The notes beneath the pieces were generated by a model, which saw nothing but the letters and a program-made list of their open reading frames with translations, did not search any database and had not been told where the DNA came from. This document shows positions 1-8,961 of a stretch of 8,961 bases of DNA, one piece after another. Source of the stretch: a virus (lineage: Duplodnaviria > Heunggongvirae > Uroviricota > Caudoviricetes). The position numbers and the translations under genes are program-made. Every line of letters starts with the position of its first letter. Position 1 is the stretch's first letter. The stretch is taken from IMG/VR virus record IMGVR_UViG_2534682331_000006; one strand, written 5' to 3'.

Positions 1-323
1 AACTGGCGAAAGCGTTCGCATACGCCCTGAACCAGTGGCCGGCGCTGACGTACTATGCAGATGATGGCTGGGCTGAGGCGGACAATAACATCGCTGAAAA
101 TGCGTTGCGGATGGTCAGTCTGGGCCGCAAAAACTACCTGTTCTTCGGTTCGGATCATGGAGGAGAGCGGGGAGCGCTGCTGTACAGCCTGATCGGGACG
201 TGCAAACTGAACGGAGTGGAGCCAGAAAGCTACCTCCGCTATGTCCTTGACGTCATAGCCGACTGGCCGATAAACCGGGTCGGCGAACTGCTCCCCTGGC
301 GCGTAGCACTGCCGACTGAATAA
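1..323 (+). CDS. IS66-family transposase (TnpC-like), C-terminal fragment; 5' end lies outside the window
   Basis: Reading frame is open from position 3 to the TAA at 321..323. Translation (...LAKAFAYALNQWPALTYYADDGWAEADNNIAENALRMVSLGRKNYLFFGSDHGGERGALLYSLIGTCKLNGVEPESYLRYVLDVIADWPINRVGELLPWRVALPTE) matches my recollection of the conserved C-terminus of IS66-family TnpC. An identical protein is encoded on the - strand at the other end of the window. Confidence 0.85.
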   Translation, partial: LAKAFAYALNQWPALTYYADDGWAEADNNIAENALRMVSLGRKNYLFFGSDHGGERGALLYSLIGTCKLNGVEPESYLRYVLDVIADWPINRVGELLPWRVALPTE

Positions 324-360
324 CACATCCCCGTCAATACGGTTCTTGCTGCACGCTTAC
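1..360 (+). mobile_element. IS66-family insertion sequence, terminal fragment (element continues left of window); transposase-distal end faces the phage genes
   Basis: Carries the C-terminal end of an IS66-type TnpC transposase (1..323) and ends ...GCACGCTTAC at 360, the complement of the GTAAGCG terminus typical of the IS66 family. Positions 1..360 are the reverse complement of 8571..8930 (checked by hand on 1..60 and 241..360; the two ORF translations are identical). Identity stops exactly at 360/361. Confidence 0.85.
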
Positions 361-2213
361 ATATCACCCACATTAATCTCCATATCAATTCACCGGGTGG
401 CGATGTCTTTGAAGGCATCGCCATTTTTAATGCGCTGAAAACACATGGTGCGTCCATTACCGTTTATGTCGACGGTGTGGCGGCATCAATGGCGTCGGTC
501 ATTGCGATGGTGGGAAACCCGGTCATTATGCCGGAAAACACCTTCATGATGATTCATAAACCATTTGGCTTTACGGGCGGTGATGCGGAGGACATGCGCA
601 CCTATGCCGACCTGCTCGATAAAGTTGAGGCGGTTCTGTTACCCGCTTATGCACAGAAAACCGGGAAAACCACCGATGAAATTGCTGCCATGCTGGCGGA
701 TGAGACCTGGATGTCCGGTGCCGAATGTCTGGCACATGGATTTGCTGATCAGGTGACGCCAGCCGTTAAGGCAATGGCATGTATTCAGTCAAAACGTACA
801 GAGGAATTTAAAAAGATGCCGGAATCCATTCGAAACATGATTACTCCGCCACGCAACAGTGCTCCACGCGTACAGGATAATGAACCTGCAGCTTCCCGGA
901 CGCCAGTGCAGGCAGCAGCACCCGTGGTGGATGAAAACAGTATCCGTGCGCAGGTACTGGCAGAGCAAAAAGCGCGTGTAAACGGTATTAATGATCTGTT
1001 TGCCATGTTTGGCGGGCGTTATCAGACGCTGCAGGCTCAGTGTCTTGCCGATCCTGAATGTTCGCTGGAGCAGGCCCGCGAAAAGCTGTTGAACGAGATG
1101 GGGCGCGAGTCCACGCCATCCAATAAAAATACCCCGGCTCATATTTATGCCGGTAACGGTAATTTTGTGGGGGACGGGATCCGCCAGGCGCTGATGGCGC
1201 GTGCCGGATTTGAAAAAACCGAACGTGATAATGTCTACAACGGGATGACCCTGCGTGAATATGCCCGTATGTCACTGACTGAACGGGGTATTGGGGTTTC
1301 CAGTTATAACCCGATGCAGATGGTCGGTGCGGCGTTCACACACAGTACGTCTGACTTCGGTAATATTCTGCTGGATGTTGCGAACAAAGCCATTCTGCAG
1401 GGCTGGGAAGATGCCCCTGAAACCTATGAACAGTGGACGCGGAAAGGTCAGTTGTCTGATTTTAAAATTGCCCATCGTGTGGGTATGGGGGGCTTCAGTG
1501 CTCTGCGTCAGGTGCGTGAAGGGGCGGAATATAAATACGTCACCACCGGAGATAAACAGGCCACTATTGCACTGGCGACCTATGGCGAGCTGTTCAGTAT
1601 CACCCGTCAGGCCATTATCAATGATGATCTGAATATGCTGACCGATGTCCCGATGAAACTGGGCCGTGCGGCGAAATCCACTATTGCCGATCTGGTTTAT
1701 GCCATTCTGACGTCTAACCCGAAAATCTCCACAGATAATGTAAGTCTGTTCGATAAAGCGAAACATGCAAACGTACTGGAGAGCGCTGCAATGGACGTGG
1801 AATCGCTGGATAAAGCCCGCCAGTTGATGCGCGTTCAGAAAGAGGGGGAGCGTCATCTGAATATTCGTCCTGCGTTCGTACTGGTACCGACGGCGATGGA
1901 GTCTGTTGCTAACCAGGTCATTCGCTCCTCAAGTGTCAAGGGGGCTGACATTAACGCCGGTATTATTAACCCGGTGAAAGATTTTGCGACCGTTATTGCA
2001 GAGCCTCGTCTTGATGATAACAGCCTGACCACCTTCTACCTGGCTGCGTCAAAAGGCTCCGATACGATTGAAGTGGCTTATCTCAACGGTGTGGATACGC
2101 CATATATTGATCAGATGGAGGGCTTCAGTGTGGATGGCGTGACAACGAAAGTGCGTATTGACGCCGGTGTCGCGCCAGTTGATCACCGCGGTCTGGTGAA
2201 ATGTACGGCGTAA
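361..2213 (+). CDS. ClpP-like prohead protease / major capsid protein fusion, 5'-truncated by the IS66 insertion (probable pseudogene; first in-frame start codons are GTG 477 and ATG 486)
   Basis: Frame is open from the IS junction to the stop at 2211..2213. Its N-terminal part reads ...INSPGGDVFEGIAIFNALKTHGASITVYVDGVAASMASVIAMVG...MIHKP, which resembles ClpP (INSPGG; catalytic Ser in a GxAASM-like motif; His in MIHxP), but the roughly 60 residues that precede INSPGG in ClpP are missing and no start codon lies upstream of 477. The roughly 370 C-terminal residues look like an HK97-fold major capsid domain, joined by an Ala/Pro/Gln-rich linker. The architecture matches prophage proteins annotated as ClpP-like prohead protease/major capsid fusion. 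Subfamily assignment needs an HMM search. Confidence 0.8.
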
Positions 2214-2236
2214 ACGTCGCAGACAACAACTCTGAT

Positions 2237-2256
2237 GGCCCGTAAGGGCTTTTTTT
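2237..2256 (+). terminator. Putative intrinsic terminator downstream of the major capsid gene
   Basis: Short GC stem gccc/gggc (2238..2241 with 2246..2249) closed by a GNRA-type tetraloop GTAA (2242..2245), followed by a T run (2250..2256), 24 nt after the capsid stop codon. The stem is short, so termination is probably partial. Confidence 0.5.
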
Positions 2257-2299
2257 GTACCTGAAATCAGCCCCTGAACGGGGCTGTGCGGAGACAGTT

Positions 2300-2623
2300 A
2301 TGGCAAAGAATTTTGTAGAAGAAGGAAAAACGGTGGCGATTGTTGCCAGTGCAGCCATCAGCAGTGGAGATCTGGTGCAGGTGGGGGATGTTTTTGCGGT
2401 AGCGCTGACCGATATTCCACAGGGTGAAACAGGCGACGGCCTGACCGAAGGTGTGTTTATGCTGCCTAAGCTGAAAACGGATGACATGAAAACGGGTAAG
2501 AAGGTTTATCTGAAGTCCGGAAAAGTTCAGTTGACTAACAGCGGCTCTGATCCGCTGGTCGGGGTTGTCTGGGCAGATGCCGGAACCAGTGCAGAAGAAG
2601 TGCCGGTAAAACTCAATGTCTGA
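2300..2623 (+). CDS. Small head protein, DUF2190-like (possible capsid decoration/cement protein)
   Basis: 107-aa ORF directly downstream of the major capsid gene; ATG at 2300 preceded by GGAGAC (2289..2294). Gly/Val-rich, predicted beta-rich sequence (MAKNFVEEGKTVAIVASAAISSGDLVQVGDVFAVAL...) of the kind found next to HK97-type capsid genes. The longer ORF-track start at 2255 lacks an RBS and overlaps the terminator hairpins. Confidence 0.5.
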   Translation: MAKNFVEEGKTVAIVASAAISSGDLVQVGDVFAVALTDIPQGETGDGLTEGVFMLPKLKTDDMKTGKKVYLKSGKVQLTNSGSDPLVGVVWADAGTSAEEVPVKLNV

Positions 2624-2891
2624 TCCCTTTTCCCGGCTGGCAGCGCGTATGGATGCGATCACGGTCAGAAAGATGGGAAAGACAGCCTCGATTAATGATG
2701 TCGATATGACTGTGATCCCGGGAGAAACACTGGCAGAGCTGAATGCTCTGTCCGGACCTGCGGTCTCTCTGGTGGTGTTTTCTTCGGGATACCGCCCACG
2801 GCGCGGGGATCGCGTTGTTTATGACGGACAACAATGGACGGTCACACGGCATGAACGCTTTAACGGTAAGCCAATGATCTTTATTGAGTAA
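2616..2891 (+). CDS. Head-tail joining protein, lambda FII-like
   Basis: 91-aa ORF whose ATG overlaps the upstream stop (ATGTCTGA), suggesting translational coupling. Position between the head genes and Z, and the C-terminal motif RRGDRVVYDGQQWTV, resemble my recollection of lambda FII (RRGD...). Homology not verified by search. Confidence 0.6.
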   Translation: MSDPFSRLAARMDAITVRKMGKTASINDVDMTVIPGETLAELNALSGPAVSLVVFSSGYRPRRGDRVVYDGQQWTVTRHERFNGKPMIFIE

Positions 2892-2902
2892 AGAGGTGTG
2901 GG

Positions 2903-3493
2903 ATGAAGGGGCTTGAGAATGCTATCCGCAATCTGAACAGCCTTGATACCCGTATGGTGCCACAGGCCAGCGCATGGGCGATAAACCGTGTGGCACAGAA
3001 AGCGGTCTCGGTTGCCACCCGGCAGGTTGCCGGGAATACCGTTGCGGGAGATAACCAGGTGAAAGGGATCCCCCTGAAACTGGTACGTCAGCGTGTCCGG
3101 GTGTTTAAAGCCAGTCCGTCAGGAAAAATGACGGCCAGGATCCGCGTTAACCGGGGCAATCTGCCCACCATCAAGCTGAACACAACACGGCGGCGTGCTG
3201 GTGAAGGATTGAGAGTGGGAAAATACTTTTTCCGGGGGGCATTTATTCAGCAACTGGCGAATGGCCGCTGGCATGTTCTGAGGCGTCTTCCTGAAGCGCG
3301 TTTTGCAACAGGGCATGACCATCAGGGCAGGCCAAGAAAAAATCGTCTTCCTGTGGAGGTAGTGAAAATCCCGCTGTCCGGACCGCTGACACAGGCATTT
3401 GAAGATGCCCGCGACCGCATCATTGCTGCGGAAATGCCGAAACAGCTGGGGTATGCACTGAAACAACAACTGAGGTTATGGCTGACCCGATGA
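2903..3493 (+). CDS. Z: Minor tail protein Z (lambda gpZ family)
   Basis: 196 aa (lambda Z is about 192 aa); RBS AGAGG at 2892..2896, 6 nt before the ATG. N-terminus MKGLENAIRNLNSL..., internal GAFIQQLANGRWHV and C-terminus ...VVKIPLSGPLTQAF...LGYALKQQLRLW match my recollection of lambda Z. Synteny is Z-U-V-G-T-H. Confidence 0.85.
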   Translation: MKGLENAIRNLNSLDTRMVPQASAWAINRVAQKAVSVATRQVAGNTVAGDNQVKGIPLKLVRQRVRVFKASPSGKMTARIRVNRGNLPTIKLNTTRRRAGEGLRVGKYFFRGAFIQQLANGRWHVLRRLPEARFATGHDHQGRPRKNRLPVEVVKIPLSGPLTQAFEDARDRIIAAEMPKQLGYALKQQLRLWLTR

Positions 3494-3891
3494 ACCGACA
3501 TACACAAATCCGCCAGGTCGTACTAGCACGCCTTCGGAAACAGTGTGGAGACAGCGCCACGTTTTTTGACGGGCTTCCGGCATTTGTTGATGCGCAGGAA
3601 CTGCCTGCCGTGGCGGTGTGGCTGAGTGATGCTCAGTACACCGGAAAAATGACGGATGAAGATGACTGGCAGGCTGTTCTGCATATTGCTGTCTTCATCC
3701 GGGCACAGGCACCGGATTCAGAGCTGGATATGTGGATGGAGAGCACCATTTTCCCGGCCCTGAATGATATACCGGCACTTTCCGGACTCATCGACACCCT
3801 GATCCCACTCGGTTTTAACTATCAACGTGATAATGAGATGGCCACCTGGGCGATGGCGGAAATCACGTACCAGATCACGTACACGAATTAA
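3490..3891 (+). CDS. U: Tail terminator protein U (lambda gpU family)
   Basis: 133 aa from ATG 3490, which overlaps the Z stop (ATGA). Motifs ATFFDG, LPAVAVWL, AQYTG, PDSELDMWMES and DIPALS match lambda U as I recall it. The ORF track offers an alternative start at 3478 (4 codons longer); 3490 aligns better with lambda U. Confidence 0.85.
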   Translation: MNRHTQIRQVVLARLRKQCGDSATFFDGLPAFVDAQELPAVAVWLSDAQYTGKMTDEDDWQAVLHIAVFIRAQAPDSELDMWMESTIFPALNDIPALSGLIDTLIPLGFNYQRDNEMATWAMAEITYQITYTN

Positions 3892-3901
3892 GGAGGTGGT
3901 A

Positions 3902-4645
3902 ATGACCACACCAAATCCACTGGCAAAAACGAAAGGTGCGGGAACGACGTTCTGGATGTATACCGGCAACGGCGATGCGTTTGCGAACCCTTTGTCGGAC
4001 ACTGACTGGTTGCGTCTTGCGATGGTGAAGGATCTGCAACCTGGCGAAATGACCGCTGATGCAGAAGATGACACTTATCTCGATGATGAAGATGCAGACT
4101 GGAAAACGACAACCCAGGGGCAGAAATCCGTCGGTGATACTTCGGCGACGCTGGCCTGGCGTCCGGGGGACAGCGGGCAGAAAAAACTGGTTCAGTTGTT
4201 CGACTCCGGTGAAGTCTGCGCGTTTCGTATCAAATATCCCAACGGTACTGTTGATGTTTTCCGTGGCTGGCTGAGTTCACTGGGTAAAACCATTGCCTCA
4301 AAAGACGTGATGACCCGCACCGTGAAAATCAGCGGTGTGGGGCGTCCGTATCTGGCAGAGGAAGGCACTGAAACCGTGGGCGTTACCGGGCTGACGGTGG
4401 CACCGGCATCTGCCAGTGTAAAAGTGGGAGCAACCACCACGCTGACCTTTACAGTAAAACCTGACGGAGCCAGTGACAAAGCGATCAGTGTGCATTCGAC
4501 AGATCCACAGACTGCCACGGTGACCCTGAACGGGCTTGTGGCCACGGTGAAAGGCGTGAAGCAGGGCAGTGTCAGCATTGTGGGCATGACTTCTGACGGC
4601 GATTTTGTGGCAGTGGCTACGGTGGCTGTCAGCGCCGCAGGTTAA
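3902..4645 (+). CDS. V: Major tail protein V (lambda gpV family) with C-terminal Ig-like domain
   Basis: 247 aa (lambda V is about 246 aa); strong RBS AAGGAGGTGG at 3890..3899 before ATG 3902. MTTPNPLAKTKGAGTTFWMY..., YLDDEDADW and FPNGTVDVFRGW match lambda V closely. The C-terminal part (GVTGLTVAPASASVKVGATTTLTFTVKPDGASDK...) is Big_2/Ig-like, as in lambda V. The ORF-track start at 3827 is an in-frame extension overlapping U with no RBS. Confidence 0.92.
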   Translation: MTTPNPLAKTKGAGTTFWMYTGNGDAFANPLSDTDWLRLAMVKDLQPGEMTADAEDDTYLDDEDADWKTTTQGQKSVGDTSATLAWRPGDSGQKKLVQLFDSGEVCAFRIKYPNGTVDVFRGWLSSLGKTIASKDVMTRTVKISGVGRPYLAEEGTETVGVTGLTVAPASASVKVGATTTLTFTVKPDGASDKAISVHSTDPQTATVTLNGLVATVKGVKQGSVSIVGMTSDGDFVAVATVAVSAAG

Positions 4646-4665
4646 CAGGACGATACTCATCATTT

Positions 4666-4689
4666 GCCCCGGTTATCCGGGGCTTTTTT
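4666..4689 (+). terminator. Rho-independent terminator downstream of V
   Basis: Perfect 7-bp GC-rich stem GCCCCGG (4666..4672) / CCGGGGC (4677..4683) with loop TTAT, immediately followed by TTTTTT (4684..4689). Lies between the V stop (4645) and the G RBS. Confidence 0.8.
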
Positions 4690-4702
4690 GCAGGTGGAGA
4701 AC

Positions 4703-5092
4703 ATGATGTTTCTGAAACAGGGCACGTTTAATTATGAAAAACAGTCCGTGGTGCTCAGTGAGCTGTCCGGGCTGCAGAGAATTGAATATCTGGCGTTTGT
4801 TCAGCAGCGAACGGCAAAGTTTGATGCCGGGGAGGGAGAACTGCCGGAGGCTGAACGACAGATTGCTTTTCTGCGGATGGGGATGGATATCAATGCCTGG
4901 CTGGTTTCCCGCTCACTGTGGAATGCGGATCAGTCTAAGGATGTAGAGACGCTTTGCGCATCCGTTATTACAACATGGTCGTATGATGCCCTGGGTGCGG
5001 GGGCGGAGATGGTTCTGTCGCTGAGCGGTATGGGGGCCATTGATAATGCCGGGGATGATGAGCATGAGGCGCTGACGCCGGAAAAGTCCTGA
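4703..5092 (+). CDS. G: Tail assembly chaperone G (lambda gpG family)
   Basis: 129 aa from ATG 4703, with a second ATG at 4706; RBS GGTGGAGA at 4693..4700. MMFLKQGTFNYEKQSVVLSELSGLQRIEYLAF resembles lambda G (MFLK...VTLSELSALQRIEHLA). The ORF-track start at 4664 would lie inside the upstream terminator. Confidence 0.85.
   Translation: MMFLKQGTFNYEKQSVVLSELSGLQRIEYLAFVQQRTAKFDAGEGELPEAERQIAFLRMGMDINAWLVSRSLWNADQSKDVETLCASVITTWSYDALGAGAEMVLSLSGMGAIDNAGDDEHEALTPEKS
5080..5086 (+). other. Candidate -1 programmed ribosomal frameshift site joining G to T (GGAAAAG)
   Basis: The T reading frame is -1 relative to G and is open only from 5068, so any shift must occur within 5068..5089. The only slippery-looking sequence there is G GAA AAG (G frame). 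Lambda uses G GGA AAG at the same place. A -1 slip on AAG to AAA would give ...ALTPEK-VLTREMQFVMRLAREF... Confidence 0.55.
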
Positions 5093-5100
5093 CGCGGGAA

Positions 5101-5430
5101 ATGCAGTTTGTCATGCGGCTTGCCCGGGAGTTCCGGCGGGCAGACTGGCGGCGGATGCTGTCGGAAATGTCGGCCACTGAGCTTGGTGAGTGGGGCGATT
5201 ATTTCCGGATGCAGAGCTTCAGTGATGTGTGGATGGATGCGCAGTTTGCCTCGCTGAAGGCATTGATCGTGAGAATGGTGTCCGGCAGCAGTGATGCTGC
5301 GGTGGCTGATTTCAGCCTTTTACCGGAAGAGAACGGGATACCGGAGCGAACGGACGAAGAACTGATGCATCTTGGAGAAGGTATTTCCGGAGGTGTGCGT
5401 TATGGACCAGATAGCCAACCTGGTCATTGA
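5101..5430 (+). CDS. T: Tail assembly chaperone T-domain ORF (lambda gpT family), expected to be made only as a G-T fusion by -1 frameshifting
   Basis: -1 frame ORF overlapping the 3' end of G; MRLAREFRRADWRRML... resembles the start of lambda T. No RBS precedes ATG 5101 and the frame is open upstream to 5068, consistent with frameshift expression. Coordinates are those of the ORF-track segment. Confidence 0.75.
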   Translation: MQFVMRLAREFRRADWRRMLSEMSATELGEWGDYFRMQSFSDVWMDAQFASLKALIVRMVSGSSDAAVADFSLLPEENGIPERTDEELMHLGEGISGGVRYGPDSQPGH

Positions 5431-8400
5431 TTTGGGGATTGATGCGGCAGAGTTTAAAAATGAAATTCCCCGTATCAAAAACCTTCTGAATGGTGCCGCC
5501 AGCGATGCAGAACGGTCTTCTGCCCGTATGCAGCGTTTTATGGAGCGTCAGACTCAGGCCGCCCGGCAGACAACGCAGGCGGCTTCTTCGGCTGCAACAG
5601 CCGCCTCCGTCCATGCGCAGACGGTGGAGAAGAACGCACAGGCTCATGAACGCATGGCCCGCGAGGTGGAGAAAACCCGCCAGCGCATGGAGGCGCTGAG
5701 CCAGAAAATGCGCGATGAACAGGCGCAGGCCATGGCTCTGGCGGAGGCTCAGGATAAAGCGGCTGCTGCGTTTTATCGTCAGATTGACAGTGTGAAACAG
5801 GCCAGTGCGGGGCTGCAGGAATTACAGCGTATTCAGCAGCAGATCCGACAGGCCAGAAACAGTGGCGGGATTGGTCAGCAGGATTATCTGGCGCTGATTT
5901 CTGAGGTTACGGCGAAAACCCGTGTTCTTACACAGGCTGAGGAAGAGGCTACCCGACAGAAAGTGGCGTTTATCCGTCAGCTTAAAGAGCAGGCAACCCG
6001 CCAGAATCTTTCTTCTTCTGAGTTGCTTCGTGCTAAGGCTGCCCAGCTGGGGGTAAGCAGTGCTGCAGAAGTGTATATCCGCAAAATGGAGCAGGCAGGA
6101 AAAGCCACGCATTCGCTGGGTCTGAAAAGTGCAGCGGCCCGCCAGGAGATAGGCGTTCTGATAGGTGAACTGGCTCGCGGCAATTTAGGTGCGCTGAGGG
6201 GATCCGGGATAACGCTGGCTAACCGTGCCGGATGGATAGACACACTGATGTCACCGAAAGGCATGATGCTGGGCGGGGTTATTGGCGGTATTGCCGCGGC
6301 CGTCTATGGTCTGGGTAAAGCCTGGTATGACGGTCAGAAGGAGGGGGAAGAATTTAACCGCCAGTTGTCGCTGACGGGGCATTATGCCGGAGTCACTGCC
6401 GGGCAGCTGTGGACGCTCAGTCGTGCTATTTCCGGGAATGGTATCACGCAACATGCTGCAGCCGGTGCGCTGGCTCAGGTGGTGGGGAGTGGTGCATTTC
6501 GTGGAAACGATATCGGTATGGTGGCGAGAGCTGCCGCACAGATGGAGCGATCGGTTGGCCAGTCGGTCAGCGATACCATAAGTCAGTTTAAGCGGCTGAA
6601 GGATGATCCTGTAAATGCCGCGAAGGCTCTGGACAATGAGCTGCATTTTCTTACTGCCACTCAGCTTGAGCAGATACGCGTCCTTGGGGAACAGGGGCGG
6701 TCCAGTGATGCGGCACGGATAGCCATGTCTGCACTGGCAGAGGAAACCGGTCGGCGTACTGCGGATATTGATAATAACCTCAATGCGCTGGGCAGTACGC
6801 TGAAGTATCTGTCTGATTTATGGAGTCGTTTCTGGGATGCGGCCATGAATATTGGTCGTGAAGACTCGCTGGATGAACAGATTTCCGCTTTACAGGAGAA
6901 AGTGTCGCGGGCGAAAAGACTCCCCTGGACGGCATCATCTTCTCAGGTTGAGTACGATCAGCAGCGTCTTAACGAGCTTCAGGAGAAAAAACGCCAGAAG
7001 GATTTGCAGGATGCAAAAGAGCAGGCAGAGCGGAATTATCAGGAGCAACAGAAACGCCGTAATGCTGAAAATGCTGCACTGAACCGGATGAATGAAACGG
7101 AAGCAGCACGACATCAGCGTGAAATTGCGCGTATTAATGCCATGCAGTACGCCGATCAGGCTGTCAGGGATGCGGCGATACAACGTGAAAATGAACGTTA
7201 CGAGAAAGCCCTGGCATCCGGTAAGAAAAAAACACGCGAAACCCGTAATGATGAGGCCACCCGGTTATTGCTGCAGTACAGTCAGCAACAGGCACAGGTG
7301 GAAGGACAGATTGCTGCTGCAAGACAGTCAGCAGGCATTGCCACTGACAGGATGACAGAAGCGCATAAACAGCTTCTGGCTCTGCAGCAGCGCATCAGCG
7401 ATCTGGACGGGAAAAAACTGACGGCAGATGAAAAGAGTGTGCTGGCCCGTAAAGATGAACTGATTCAGGCACTGACGCTGCTGGATGTAAAACAGCAGGA
7501 GCTTCAGAAACAGACGGCACTCAACGATCTGAAGAAAAAAACAATTCAGCTGACCAGTCAACTGGCTGAAGAAGAGCGCGCTCAGCGCCAGCAACATGAC
7601 CTGGATATCGCCACGGTGGGTATGGGTGATCAGCAGCGGCAGCGATATCAGGTACAACTGAGTCTTCGCCAGAAATACCAGCAACAGCTGGAGCAGTTGA
7701 GGCGGGATAGTGAGCAGAAAGGAACATATAACACGGATGACTACAGAAAGGCCGAGCAGGCGCTGACGGAGAGCCTGAACCGACAACTGAATGAGAATCG
7801 CCGTTATTGGCAACAGCTTGAAATTGCTCAGGGTGACTGGAAAAACGGAGTCCTGCGTGCACTCCAGAATGTCACTGAGAAAGCGGATAACACAGCCGGG
7901 ACAGTGGAACAGTTGTTCACGTCTGCGTTCAGTAGCATGAGTGACTGGCTGGCGACATTCTGTACTACAGGCAAACTCAATTTCAAATCCTTCACCTCTT
8001 CTGTGCTGTCAGATATGTCCAGAATCATGGCTCAGATAGCTTTAATGAAAGCGGTAAAAGGTATTGCTTCCGCGCTGCCTTTTGATTTTGTAGCCAATGC
8101 TGATGGCGGTGTTTATCAGTCGGCTGATTTGAGTCGCTACAGTGGCACGGTGGTTAACCGTCCGACGTTTTTTGCTTTTGCAAAAGGCGCGGGTGTGATG
8201 GGGGAAGCTGGACCTGAAGCCATTCTGCCACTGCGTCGTGGTGCTGACGGTAAGCTGGGGGTTGTGGCGGATATTGGTGGTTCAGGTATGGCGATGTTTG
8301 CCCCGCAGTACAACATCGAGATCAATAACGATGGCACGAACGGGCAGATAGGTCCGGCTGCCCTGAAGGTGGTTTATGACCTTGGGAAAAAAGCGGCAGC

Positions 8401-8458
8401 GGACTTTATGCAACAGCAGGCCCGTGATGGTGGTCGGTTAAGTGGAGCATATCGGTAA
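5402..8458 (+). CDS. H: Tail tape measure protein H (lambda gpH family)
   Basis: 1018 aa from ATG 5402; RBS GGAGG at 5389..5393. N-terminus MDQIANLVIDLGIDAAEF resembles lambda H (...GDLVVDLSLDAARF...), and the C-terminus ...INNDGTNGQIGPAALKVVYDLGKKAAADFMQQQARDGG matches the lambda H C-terminus. Long Ala/Gln/Glu/Arg-rich predicted coiled-coil regions in between. The ORF track's TTG start at 5372 is less likely. Confidence 0.92.
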   Translation: MDQIANLVIDLGIDAAEFKNEIPRIKNLLNGAASDAERSSARMQRFMERQTQAARQTTQAASSAATAASVHAQTVEKNAQAHERMAREVEKTRQRMEALSQKMRDEQAQAMALAEAQDKAAAAFYRQIDSVKQASAGLQELQRIQQQIRQARNSGGIGQQDYLALISEVTAKTRVLTQAEEEATRQKVAFIRQLKEQATRQNLSSSELLRAKAAQLGVSSAAEVYIRKMEQAGKATHSLGLKSAAARQEIGVLIGELARGNLGALRGSGITLANRAGWIDTLMSPKGMMLGGVIGGIAAAVYGLGKAWYDGQKEGEEFNRQLSLTGHYAGVTAGQLWTLSRAISGNGITQHAAAGALAQVVGSGAFRGNDIGMVARAAAQMERSVGQSVSDTISQFKRLKDDPVNAAKALDNELHFLTATQLEQIRVLGEQGRSSDAARIAMSALAEETGRRTADIDNNLNALGSTLKYLSDLWSRFWDAAMNIGREDSLDEQISALQEKVSRAKRLPWTASSSQVEYDQQRLNELQEKKRQKDLQDAKEQAERNYQEQQKRRNAENAALNRMNETEAARHQREIARINAMQYADQAVRDAAIQRENERYEKALASGKKKTRETRNDEATRLLLQYSQQQAQVEGQIAAARQSAGIATDRMTEAHKQLLALQQRISDLDGKKLTADEKSVLARKDELIQALTLLDVKQQELQKQTALNDLKKKTIQLTSQLAEEERAQRQQHDLDIATVGMGDQQRQRYQVQLSLRQKYQQQLEQLRRDSEQKGTYNTDDYRKAEQALTESLNRQLNENRRYWQQLEIAQGDWKNGVLRALQNVTEKADNTAGTVEQLFTSAFSSMSDWLATFCTTGKLNFKSFTSSVLSDMSRIMAQIALMKAVKGIASALPFDFVANADGGVYQSADLSRYSGTVVNRPTFFAFAKGAGVMGEAGPEAILPLRRGADGKLGVVADIGGSGMAMFAPQYNIEINNDGTNGQIGPAALKVVYDLGKKAAADFMQQQARDGGRLSGAYR

Positions 8459-8574
8459 TGGAGACGTTTCACTGGAAAGTGCGCCCGGATATGAATGTGG
8501 TATCAGAGCCGAAAGTGGTGACAGTGAAGCTGGGCGATGGTTATGAACAGCGTCGTGCGGCGGGACTGAAGTAA
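8458..8574 (+). pseudogene. M: Minor tail protein M (lambda gpM family), truncated after codon 37 by the IS66 insertion
   Basis: ATG at 8458 overlaps the H stop (TAATG). Translation METFHWKVRPDMNVVSEPKVVTVKLGDGYEQRRAAGL matches the lambda M N-terminus (MKTFRWKVKPGMDVASVP...GDGYSQRAPAGL...). The frame then runs into the IS terminus GTAAGCG at 8571, which supplies the last codon and a TAA stop. Lambda M is about 109 aa. Confidence 0.85.
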
Positions 8575-8961
8575 GCGTGCAGCAAGAACCGTATTGACGG
8601 GGATGTGTTATTCAGTCGGCAGTGCTACGCGCCAGGGGAGCAGTTCGCCGACCCGGTTTATCGGCCAGTCGGCTATGACGTCAAGGACATAGCGGAGGTA
8701 GCTTTCTGGCTCCACTCCGTTCAGTTTGCACGTCCCGATCAGGCTGTACAGCAGCGCTCCCCGCTCTCCTCCATGATCCGAACCGAAGAACAGGTAGTTT
8801 TTGCGGCCCAGACTGACCATCCGCAACGCATTTTCAGCGATGTTATTGTCCGCCTCAGCCCAGCCATCATCTGCATAGTACGTCAGCGCCGGCCACTGGT
8901 TCAGGGCGTATGCGAACGCTTTCGCCAGTTCTGAGTGTCGCGACAGGGTTTTCATCTTTTC
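8571..8961 (-). mobile_element. IS66-family insertion sequence, terminal fragment (element continues right of window); inverted relative to the left copy
   Basis: Begins GTAAGCGTGCAGCAAGAACCGTATTGACGGGGATGTG at 8571; 8571..8930 is the reverse complement of 1..360. Encodes the same TnpC C-terminus on the - strand. Flanking bases differ from those at the left copy (GGACTGAA at 8563..8570 versus ATATCACC at 361..368), so these are two separate junctions. Confidence 0.85.
8608..8961 (-). CDS. IS66-family transposase (TnpC-like), C-terminal fragment; 5' end lies outside the window
   Basis: - strand frame open from the window edge to the stop at 8608..8610. The translation contains the same 72-aa C-terminus as the left copy plus 43 further upstream residues (MKTLSRHSELAKAFAYALNQWPALTYYADDGWAEADNNIAENAL...). 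Confidence 0.85.
   Translation of the reverse strand, partial: EKMKTLSRHSELAKAFAYALNQWPALTYYADDGWAEADNNIAENALRMVSLGRKNYLFFGSDHGGERGALLYSLIGTCKLNGVEPESYLRYVLDVIADWPINRVGELLPWRVALPTE

Follow-up and report, generated by a model that had tools for sequence, protein, structure and literature searches.

The locus described here raises the question of whether a lambda-like ETEC prophage has lost the tail genes M, L, K, I and J, or whether M alone has been broken by an insertion sequence and the genes that follow it lie elsewhere in the genome. An earlier reading of the DNA, made from its letters without database searches (the sequence-only reading), had taken M to be interrupted at an IS66 terminus and held that no functional tail tip could be made from the locus without these five genes.

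The DNA analysed, referred to throughout as the window, is 8,961 nucleotides in length. An exact-sequence lookup using the 38-amino-acid product of the interrupted gene showed that it is contig APYH01000055.1 in full, from the assembly (GCA_000357265.2) of E. coli P0299438, an ETEC strain, and the NCBI sources of this protein are E. coli P0299438.5 and P0299438.11. The P0299438 isolates are ETEC colonies from a single patient, and six of the ten isolates of that subject belong to phylogroup B1 (mBio 2015, PMC4462620). The features of the window are as follows.

1..360, plus strand: tnpC end of a second ISEc22 copy, a perfect inverted copy of 8571-8930 (360 nt, 100% complementary); the window starts inside it.
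361..368, no strand: ATATCACC, inner copy of the 8-bp duplication of the left ISEc22, with its outer counterpart on APYH01000061.1.
361..2213, plus strand: ClpP-protease/major-capsid fusion gene, 3' part only, separated from the first 61 codons by the left ISEc22.
5402..8458, plus strand: intact tail tape-measure gene of 1018 codons, a lambda H homologue (PF06791, PF24622, PF09718), directly upstream of M.
8456..8460, plus strand: TAATG overlap of the tape-measure stop and the M start, read from the sequence.
8458..8574, plus strand: M', the truncated tail gene of 38 codons, 37 of them native, followed by Lys and an IS-supplied TAA stop.
8563..8570, no strand: proximal 8-bp target-site duplication GGACTGAA, M codons 36-38, from alignment with intact relatives.
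8571..8961, minus strand: tnpC end of ISEc22 (IS66 family), 391 bases, identical at 391/391 to ISEc22 of GPEC464.
8571..8596, minus strand: right (tnpC-proximal) terminal inverted repeat of ISEc22, ~26 bp, which starts GTAAGCGT and matches the left repeat imperfectly.
8608-8961, minus strand: C-terminus of the transposase (IS66 TnpC; PF03050, E 6e-21; PF13817, E 1.5e-17); the window ends inside the element.

The two ends of the window are the same tnpC end of ISEc22, facing inwards in inverted orientation, and similarity to phage sequences was confined to the stretch between them. Sequences similar to the IS end of the window were present in 4474 of 5426 complete E. coli genomes, the median being three places in a genome. 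A multi-copy repeat halted the assembler, which is why the window breaks off within the element; its ends are assembly breaks at that repeat and not the ends of the prophage locus. The absence of L to J from the window is therefore uninformative about the genome, and illustrates that what lies beyond a repeat cannot be read from a contig that ends in it. Two positions distinguished the window from all sibling and related contigs, namely 1801, where A replaces C (Glu instead of Ala in the capsid part of the fusion), and 2386, where G replaces T, a synonymous change. These differences are either private changes or consensus errors of the APYH assembly.

Truncation of tail gene M at an ISEc22 terminus

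The ATG-initiated ORF at 8458-8574 encodes 38 amino acids, METFHWKVRPDMNVVSEPKVVTVKLGDGYEQRRAAGLK, and its start codon shares one base with the TAA stop of the tape-measure gene. The sequence-only reading had recognised an M homologue here from this TAATG overlap and an alignment with lambda M, and the assignment held under comparison with known proteins. The peptide matched PF05939 (Phage_min_tail) with 41.9 bits (E 1.4e-10) over profile positions 1-36 of 108, the curated gathering cut-off being 39 bits. The suggested comparison with lambda M gave an ungapped alignment to residues 1-37, with 22 of the 37 identical (~59%; E 3e-15). PF05939 spans the whole of the 108-109-residue M as a single domain, and the intact M homologue scored 135.7 bits against it. 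The full-length homologue from a nearly identical prophage matched the lambda Tail tip protein M (PDB 8iyk) over residues 1-108 with an E value of 1.1e-36, as did the rebuilt 109-amino-acid protein described below (8iyk and four entries). Structures of M in the lambda tail tip comprise 30 chains in five PDB entries, with six M chains per entry.

The position of the gene is also that of M, as the tape-measure gene ends at 8458 and is followed by M, with L located after the distal piece of M. This is the gene position seen in lambda, with the same H-M-L order and the same overlap of stop and start codons after the tape-measure gene. A complete M of about 109 residues was not found, the ORF in the genome being 38 codons long; in contrast to lambda M, that of P0299438 is split after codon 37 by an IS of 2454 bp. 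The P0299438 M is a disrupted member of the PF05939/gpM family and is better annotated as an IS-split pseudogene.

The break point was located by alignment of the window with phage HannyBb and with the prophage of E. coli 120899, both of which are uninterrupted. Both agree with the window at every base through GGACTGAA (8563-8570), after which the intact relatives read TAACCAG and the window reads GTAAGCGTGCAG. Four copies of ISEc22 in unrelated flanks were compared, those of the window, the ETEC6 chromosome, the F8704-2 chromosome and a plasmid of strain 99-3165. Their common sequence starts at GTAAGCG with nothing shared upstream, and ISEc22 therefore begins, unambiguously, at 8571. The alignments thus bear out an interruption of M after codon 37 at the IS66 terminus at 8571, which had been proposed as mappable to the base. 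Codon 38 is broken after its second base, AA being derived from the phage and G plus TAA from the IS, and M' therefore ends in a terminal lysine and an immediate stop. The ends of BLAST matches (phage to 8574, IS from 8561-8563, an overlap of 12 bases) were rejected as extension artefacts on direct alignment. The phage match was extended by four bases since both sequences read TAA next once a one-base gap is allowed, and the IS match gained extra bases because of chance similarity in the flanks.

The same 38-amino-acid ORF and junction were present in sibling assemblies of isolates from the same patient. JAAPMH010000050.1, an NCBI assembly that is unrelated, also has the M/IS junction, as do Logan assemblies from eight or more read sets; the junction was not found in 5,426 complete E. 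coli genomes.

The annotated ISEc22 of GPEC464, 2454 bp in length, served as the reference for positions 8571-8961. The tnpA-side end of the element reads GTAAGCGTCGTC and the tnpC-side end GTAAGCGTGCAG, the two forming an imperfect inverted repeat of ~26 bp. The ISEc22 termini begin GTAAGCG, as do those of other IS66 members (PMC12888890). The TnpC C-terminus lies in the window and tnpA (PF01527) on the partner contigs; complete ISEc22 copies with identical ends carry tnpA-tnpB-tnpC, and no contig spans tnpB of the window's copy. Duplications of 8 bp flank three other complete copies of ISEc22 (GTTTATGT, GATGAAAG and GGATAAAT), alongside those found here for the right copy (GGACTGAA) and the left copy (ATATCACC). 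In its 391/391 identity, GTAAGCG termini, 8-bp duplication and tnpA-tnpB-tnpC layout the element is like known ISEc22, and the sole difference is the insertion site, which is absent from the 5,426 complete E. coli genomes.

Between the IS copies, window positions 361-8574 exhibited 98-99% nucleotide identity to HannyBb, PhiR55_1, cdtI and mEp460, and positions 7600-8574 were 99.9% identical to ETEC prophages (strain 120899). The order of the head and tail genes is the same in these four phages and the 120899 prophage; in all of them, unlike in the window, the protease-capsid and M genes are uninterrupted. Lambdoid prophages of pathogenic E. coli can also carry an IS inside a morphogenesis gene, as in VT1-Sakai, whose record lists IS629 under the matched head-gene region; there the IS belongs to another family and the target is another gene. 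One E. coli M protein was a mosaic, in which the first 38 residues are lambda-type and the last 71 are identical to the type of the P0299438 phage, with the joint at the same codon as the ISEc22 site. Many assemblies hold contig-edge fragments of M of 28-40 amino acids. The mosaic protein and the edge fragments suggest a homology boundary between co-resident prophages at the position of the IS site.

The distal part of M and the tail genes beyond it

The sequence-only reading had proposed a search for the distal portion of M next to another IS66 end with a matching 8-bp duplication. Such a junction was found on APYH01000021.1 (3748 bp), a contig of the same assembly, where the left end of ISEc22 is followed by GGACTGAA and then by the rest of M. 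At the junction GACGACGCTTAC, the left end that terminates in CGCTTAC, is joined to GGACTGAATAACCAG; in the wider DNA CTGCCAGACGGTGCTGAGACGACGCTTAC is joined to GGACTGAATAACCAGTTGTCG, with tnpA on the minus strand. The anticipated 8-bp duplication is therefore real and consists of GGACTGAA, with one copy at 8563-8570 and the other beside the left end of ISEc22. After the duplicated 8 bp the contig holds M codons 38-109, the remaining 72 codons of the gene. Removal of the IS and one duplicate in silico, joining window positions 8458-8570 to the sequence after the second GGACTGAA, yielded an M ORF of 109 codons. The distal fragment corresponds to a 52-amino-acid call of the VV-to-GG allele (see below), which was traced through its protein cluster and is annotated in P0299438.5 and P0299438.11.

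Downstream of the distal part of M, APYH01000021.1 carries full-length L (232 amino acids), which retains its own GGAGG ribosome-binding site, K (247 amino acids) and I (215 amino acids). The first 342 codons of J are present, to the contig end, and on the sibling contig APYB01000107.1 J is visible for 672 codons up to the contig end. The same distal junction was found on the equivalent contigs of three sibling assemblies.

APYH01000021.1 differed from the intact 120899 prophage at 3 of 3011 bases, and the differences were clustered. They are three T-to-G changes at 582, 585 and 586, present at the same sites in three sibling contigs, that convert AGGGTGGTTTGT to AGGGGGGGGTGT in the distal part of M, replace residues VV with GG and create a run of eight G. 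The cluster could be post-inactivation decay, or a homopolymer sequencing artefact common to the four sibling assemblies.

Several other searches for the distal sequence gave negative results. The 69- and 64-amino-acid forms of the distal M ORF, in five alleles, were absent from the protein collection of the P0299438 strains. The 69-amino-acid candidate was rejected as it exists only in E. coli 2726800 (AQFE01000020.1, 890-1220), where M is annotated as ORFs of 29 and 69 amino acids with no IS between them. A frameshift or a sequencing error accounts for the split in 2726800, which has nothing to do with the IS event. The K protein of 120899, used as a query, matched only long contigs of other strains. 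A synthetic distal junction had no match in the 5,426 complete E. coli genomes; twelve full-coverage matches to it were discarded, as in these ISEc22 lies 0.4-0.8 kb upstream, at another site, in the tape-measure gene. Neither the species-representative genomes nor the JGI metagenome contigs contained the exact pattern of the distal junction, and the same was true of the proximal control. Those collections are therefore without this lineage and the distal negative is uninformative.

At the M junction only M is broken, and there has been no loss of the tail-tip module. The earlier claim concerning the tail tip must consequently be divided. M is split and a working tip is unlikely, but M to J are not missing, since L, K and I are full length on APYH01000021.1 and the start of J follows them. 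The arrangement which the sequence-only reading had set against its own claim, a simple IS insertion breaking M alone with L, K, I and J just beyond, is the one present on this contig, where J is represented by its start.

A second insertion in the head gene and the order of events

The left ISEc22 breaks the ClpP-protease/major-capsid fusion gene at 360/361, after about codon 61. At this junction in the window CACGCTTAC abuts ATATCACC, and at the reciprocal junction, on APYH01000061.1 at 6100-6125, GGCGATATCACC is followed by GTAAGCGTCGTC. The predicted reciprocal product, in which the N-terminus of the protease is read into the left end of the IS, is an annotated protein of 49 amino acids in the same strains. 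The 96-kb contig APYH01000061.1 ends with it, the lysis, terminase and portal genes coming before. ATATCACC is present on both sides of the left ISEc22, and this copy therefore has an 8-bp duplication of its own.

The M junction was present in JAAPMH010000050.1 together with a protease-capsid gene that is uninterrupted at the site and has its full length of 675 amino acids. In one Logan assembly with the M junction, the protease-capsid gene is an open frame of 626 amino acids that continues past the site to the contig edge. Each of these two assemblies differs from the window at 2 of 8203 bases. As the M junction occurs in genomes without the left insertion, the M insertion is therefore older and shared, and the head-gene insertion later, in the P0299438 lineage. 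Comparison of these sequences points to a single ancestral insertion in M, followed by the second insertion.

The best explanation, in which we have high confidence, is a simple insertion of ISEc22 in M with an 8-bp duplication, followed by the later insertion in the head gene, the frames of L, K and I remaining intact. One ISEc22 (2454 bp, tnpA-tnpB-tnpC) transposed into M of a lambda-like (mEp460/cdtI/HannyBb-type) ETEC prophage, where the 8-bp staggered cut usual for it at GGACTGAA (M codons 36-38) led to duplication of those bases. The element lies antisense to the tail operon, with its tnpC-side terminus abutting the 5' part of M, giving the immediate stop and the 38-residue M'. Its tnpA-side terminus abuts the remaining 72 codons of M, left without a start codon, with L, K, I and J unchanged thereafter. 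A later, second ISEc22 in the opposite orientation broke the head protease-capsid gene in the P0299438 lineage, the outcome being 8.2 kb of phage DNA between two inverted copies of the IS. In this reconstruction the three contigs are joined only through the matching duplications and the restored reading frames, no read or contig spanning either IS.

Loss of the remainder of M and of L, K, I and J through an IS-associated deletion or rearrangement would account for the lack of anything beyond the IS end in the window. It would also agree with the failure of the first guesses at the distal part of M (69 and 64 amino acids) and with the absence of both junctions from complete E. coli genomes. This explanation is already refuted by APYH01000021.1, where the distal part of M lies against the left end of ISEc22 with the GGACTGAA duplicate and is followed by L, K, I and J; very little probability can be assigned to it. 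The M/IS junction might instead be a chimeric join made at the repeat during assembly, given the multi-copy repeat at either end of the window and a draft assembly dating from 2013. An identical junction was nevertheless recovered from separately sequenced siblings, from an unrelated NCBI assembly and from at least eight Logan read sets, and the reciprocal junction carries a perfect 8-bp duplication, so that an artefact of this kind is scarcely conceivable.

Two identical inverted IS copies flanking a block are also compatible with a composite transposon, in which both copies of ISEc22 moved in together with the 8.2-kb head-tail block. Against this, a separate 8-bp duplication lies across each IS (ATATCACC for the left copy, GGACTGAA for the right). 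Outside the two copies the same prophage carries on in its correct gene order, with portal and the 5' part of the protease before the left copy, and the 3' part of M followed by L, K, I and J after the right copy. Movement of a composite transposon as a unit is therefore excluded, and genomes with the right-hand insertion only exist. A different proposal adds to the simple insertion in M rather than replacing it. Following the same two insertions, the 8.2-kb segment may since have been flipped by recombination between the inverted copies of ISEc22, which match at 100% over 360 bp or more. Because the two copies share one sequence and face in opposite directions, the segment could lie in either orientation; both isomers yield the same four junction sequences and are indistinguishable from the contigs. 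Nothing stands directly against such an inversion, which we regard as possible but rather unlikely. If the segment were flipped, the head-tail genes from the 3' part of the protease to M' would run opposite in direction to the remainder of the late operon.

ISEc22 in lambdoid prophages and expected consequences for the P0299438 prophage

Independent insertions of ISEc22 were observed in other E. coli, one in the protease-capsid gene ~100 bp downstream of the left site of the window and one in the small terminase gene. The stretches examined with ISEc22 in a lambdoid morphogenesis module were GPEC464 9900-12370 and F8704-2 3000-5470. Twelve complete genomes carry ISEc22 in the 3' end of the tape-measure gene, with five or more spacings among the ten matches listed. 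The 8 bp adjoining the terminus on the tnpC side show a tendency towards GG or GA as first bases (GGACTGAA, GGTGATAT, GATGAAAG, GGATAAAT and GGACGGAT, with ACATAAAC against) and towards A/T richness at the far end, the sites numbering only six. From these six sites, ISEc22 may have a weak target-sequence preference. It is improbable that ISEc22 prefers lambdoid head-tail genes and that the inverted pair makes the 8.2-kb block an invertible or mobilisable cassette. The sample of ISEc22 targets is small and biased, given that the queries contained phage sequence, and it includes no background rate of tolerated insertions in prophages.

For the simple insertion in M several consequences would follow. 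Lambda tail assembly needs M for completion of the tail initiator, a step that precedes polymerisation of the tube. A 37-residue piece of the 109-residue, single-domain M would be unable to fill the position of gpM in the tail tip, and a tail defect is expected of the prophage if no co-resident lambdoid prophage provides M. A head defect is expected as well in P0299438. Expression of L to J would now require transcription through 2.45 kb of antisense IS.

The insertion is textbook IS transposition and represents a well-known type of prophage decay, with nothing novel, and its significance beyond annotation is small. For annotation, the two copies of ISEc22 give the scaffold order APYH01000061, APYH01000055, APYH01000021. 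The locus is that of an ETEC prophage crippled by two insertions of ISEc22, in a head gene and a tail gene respectively, rather than by the disappearance of its tail-tip module.
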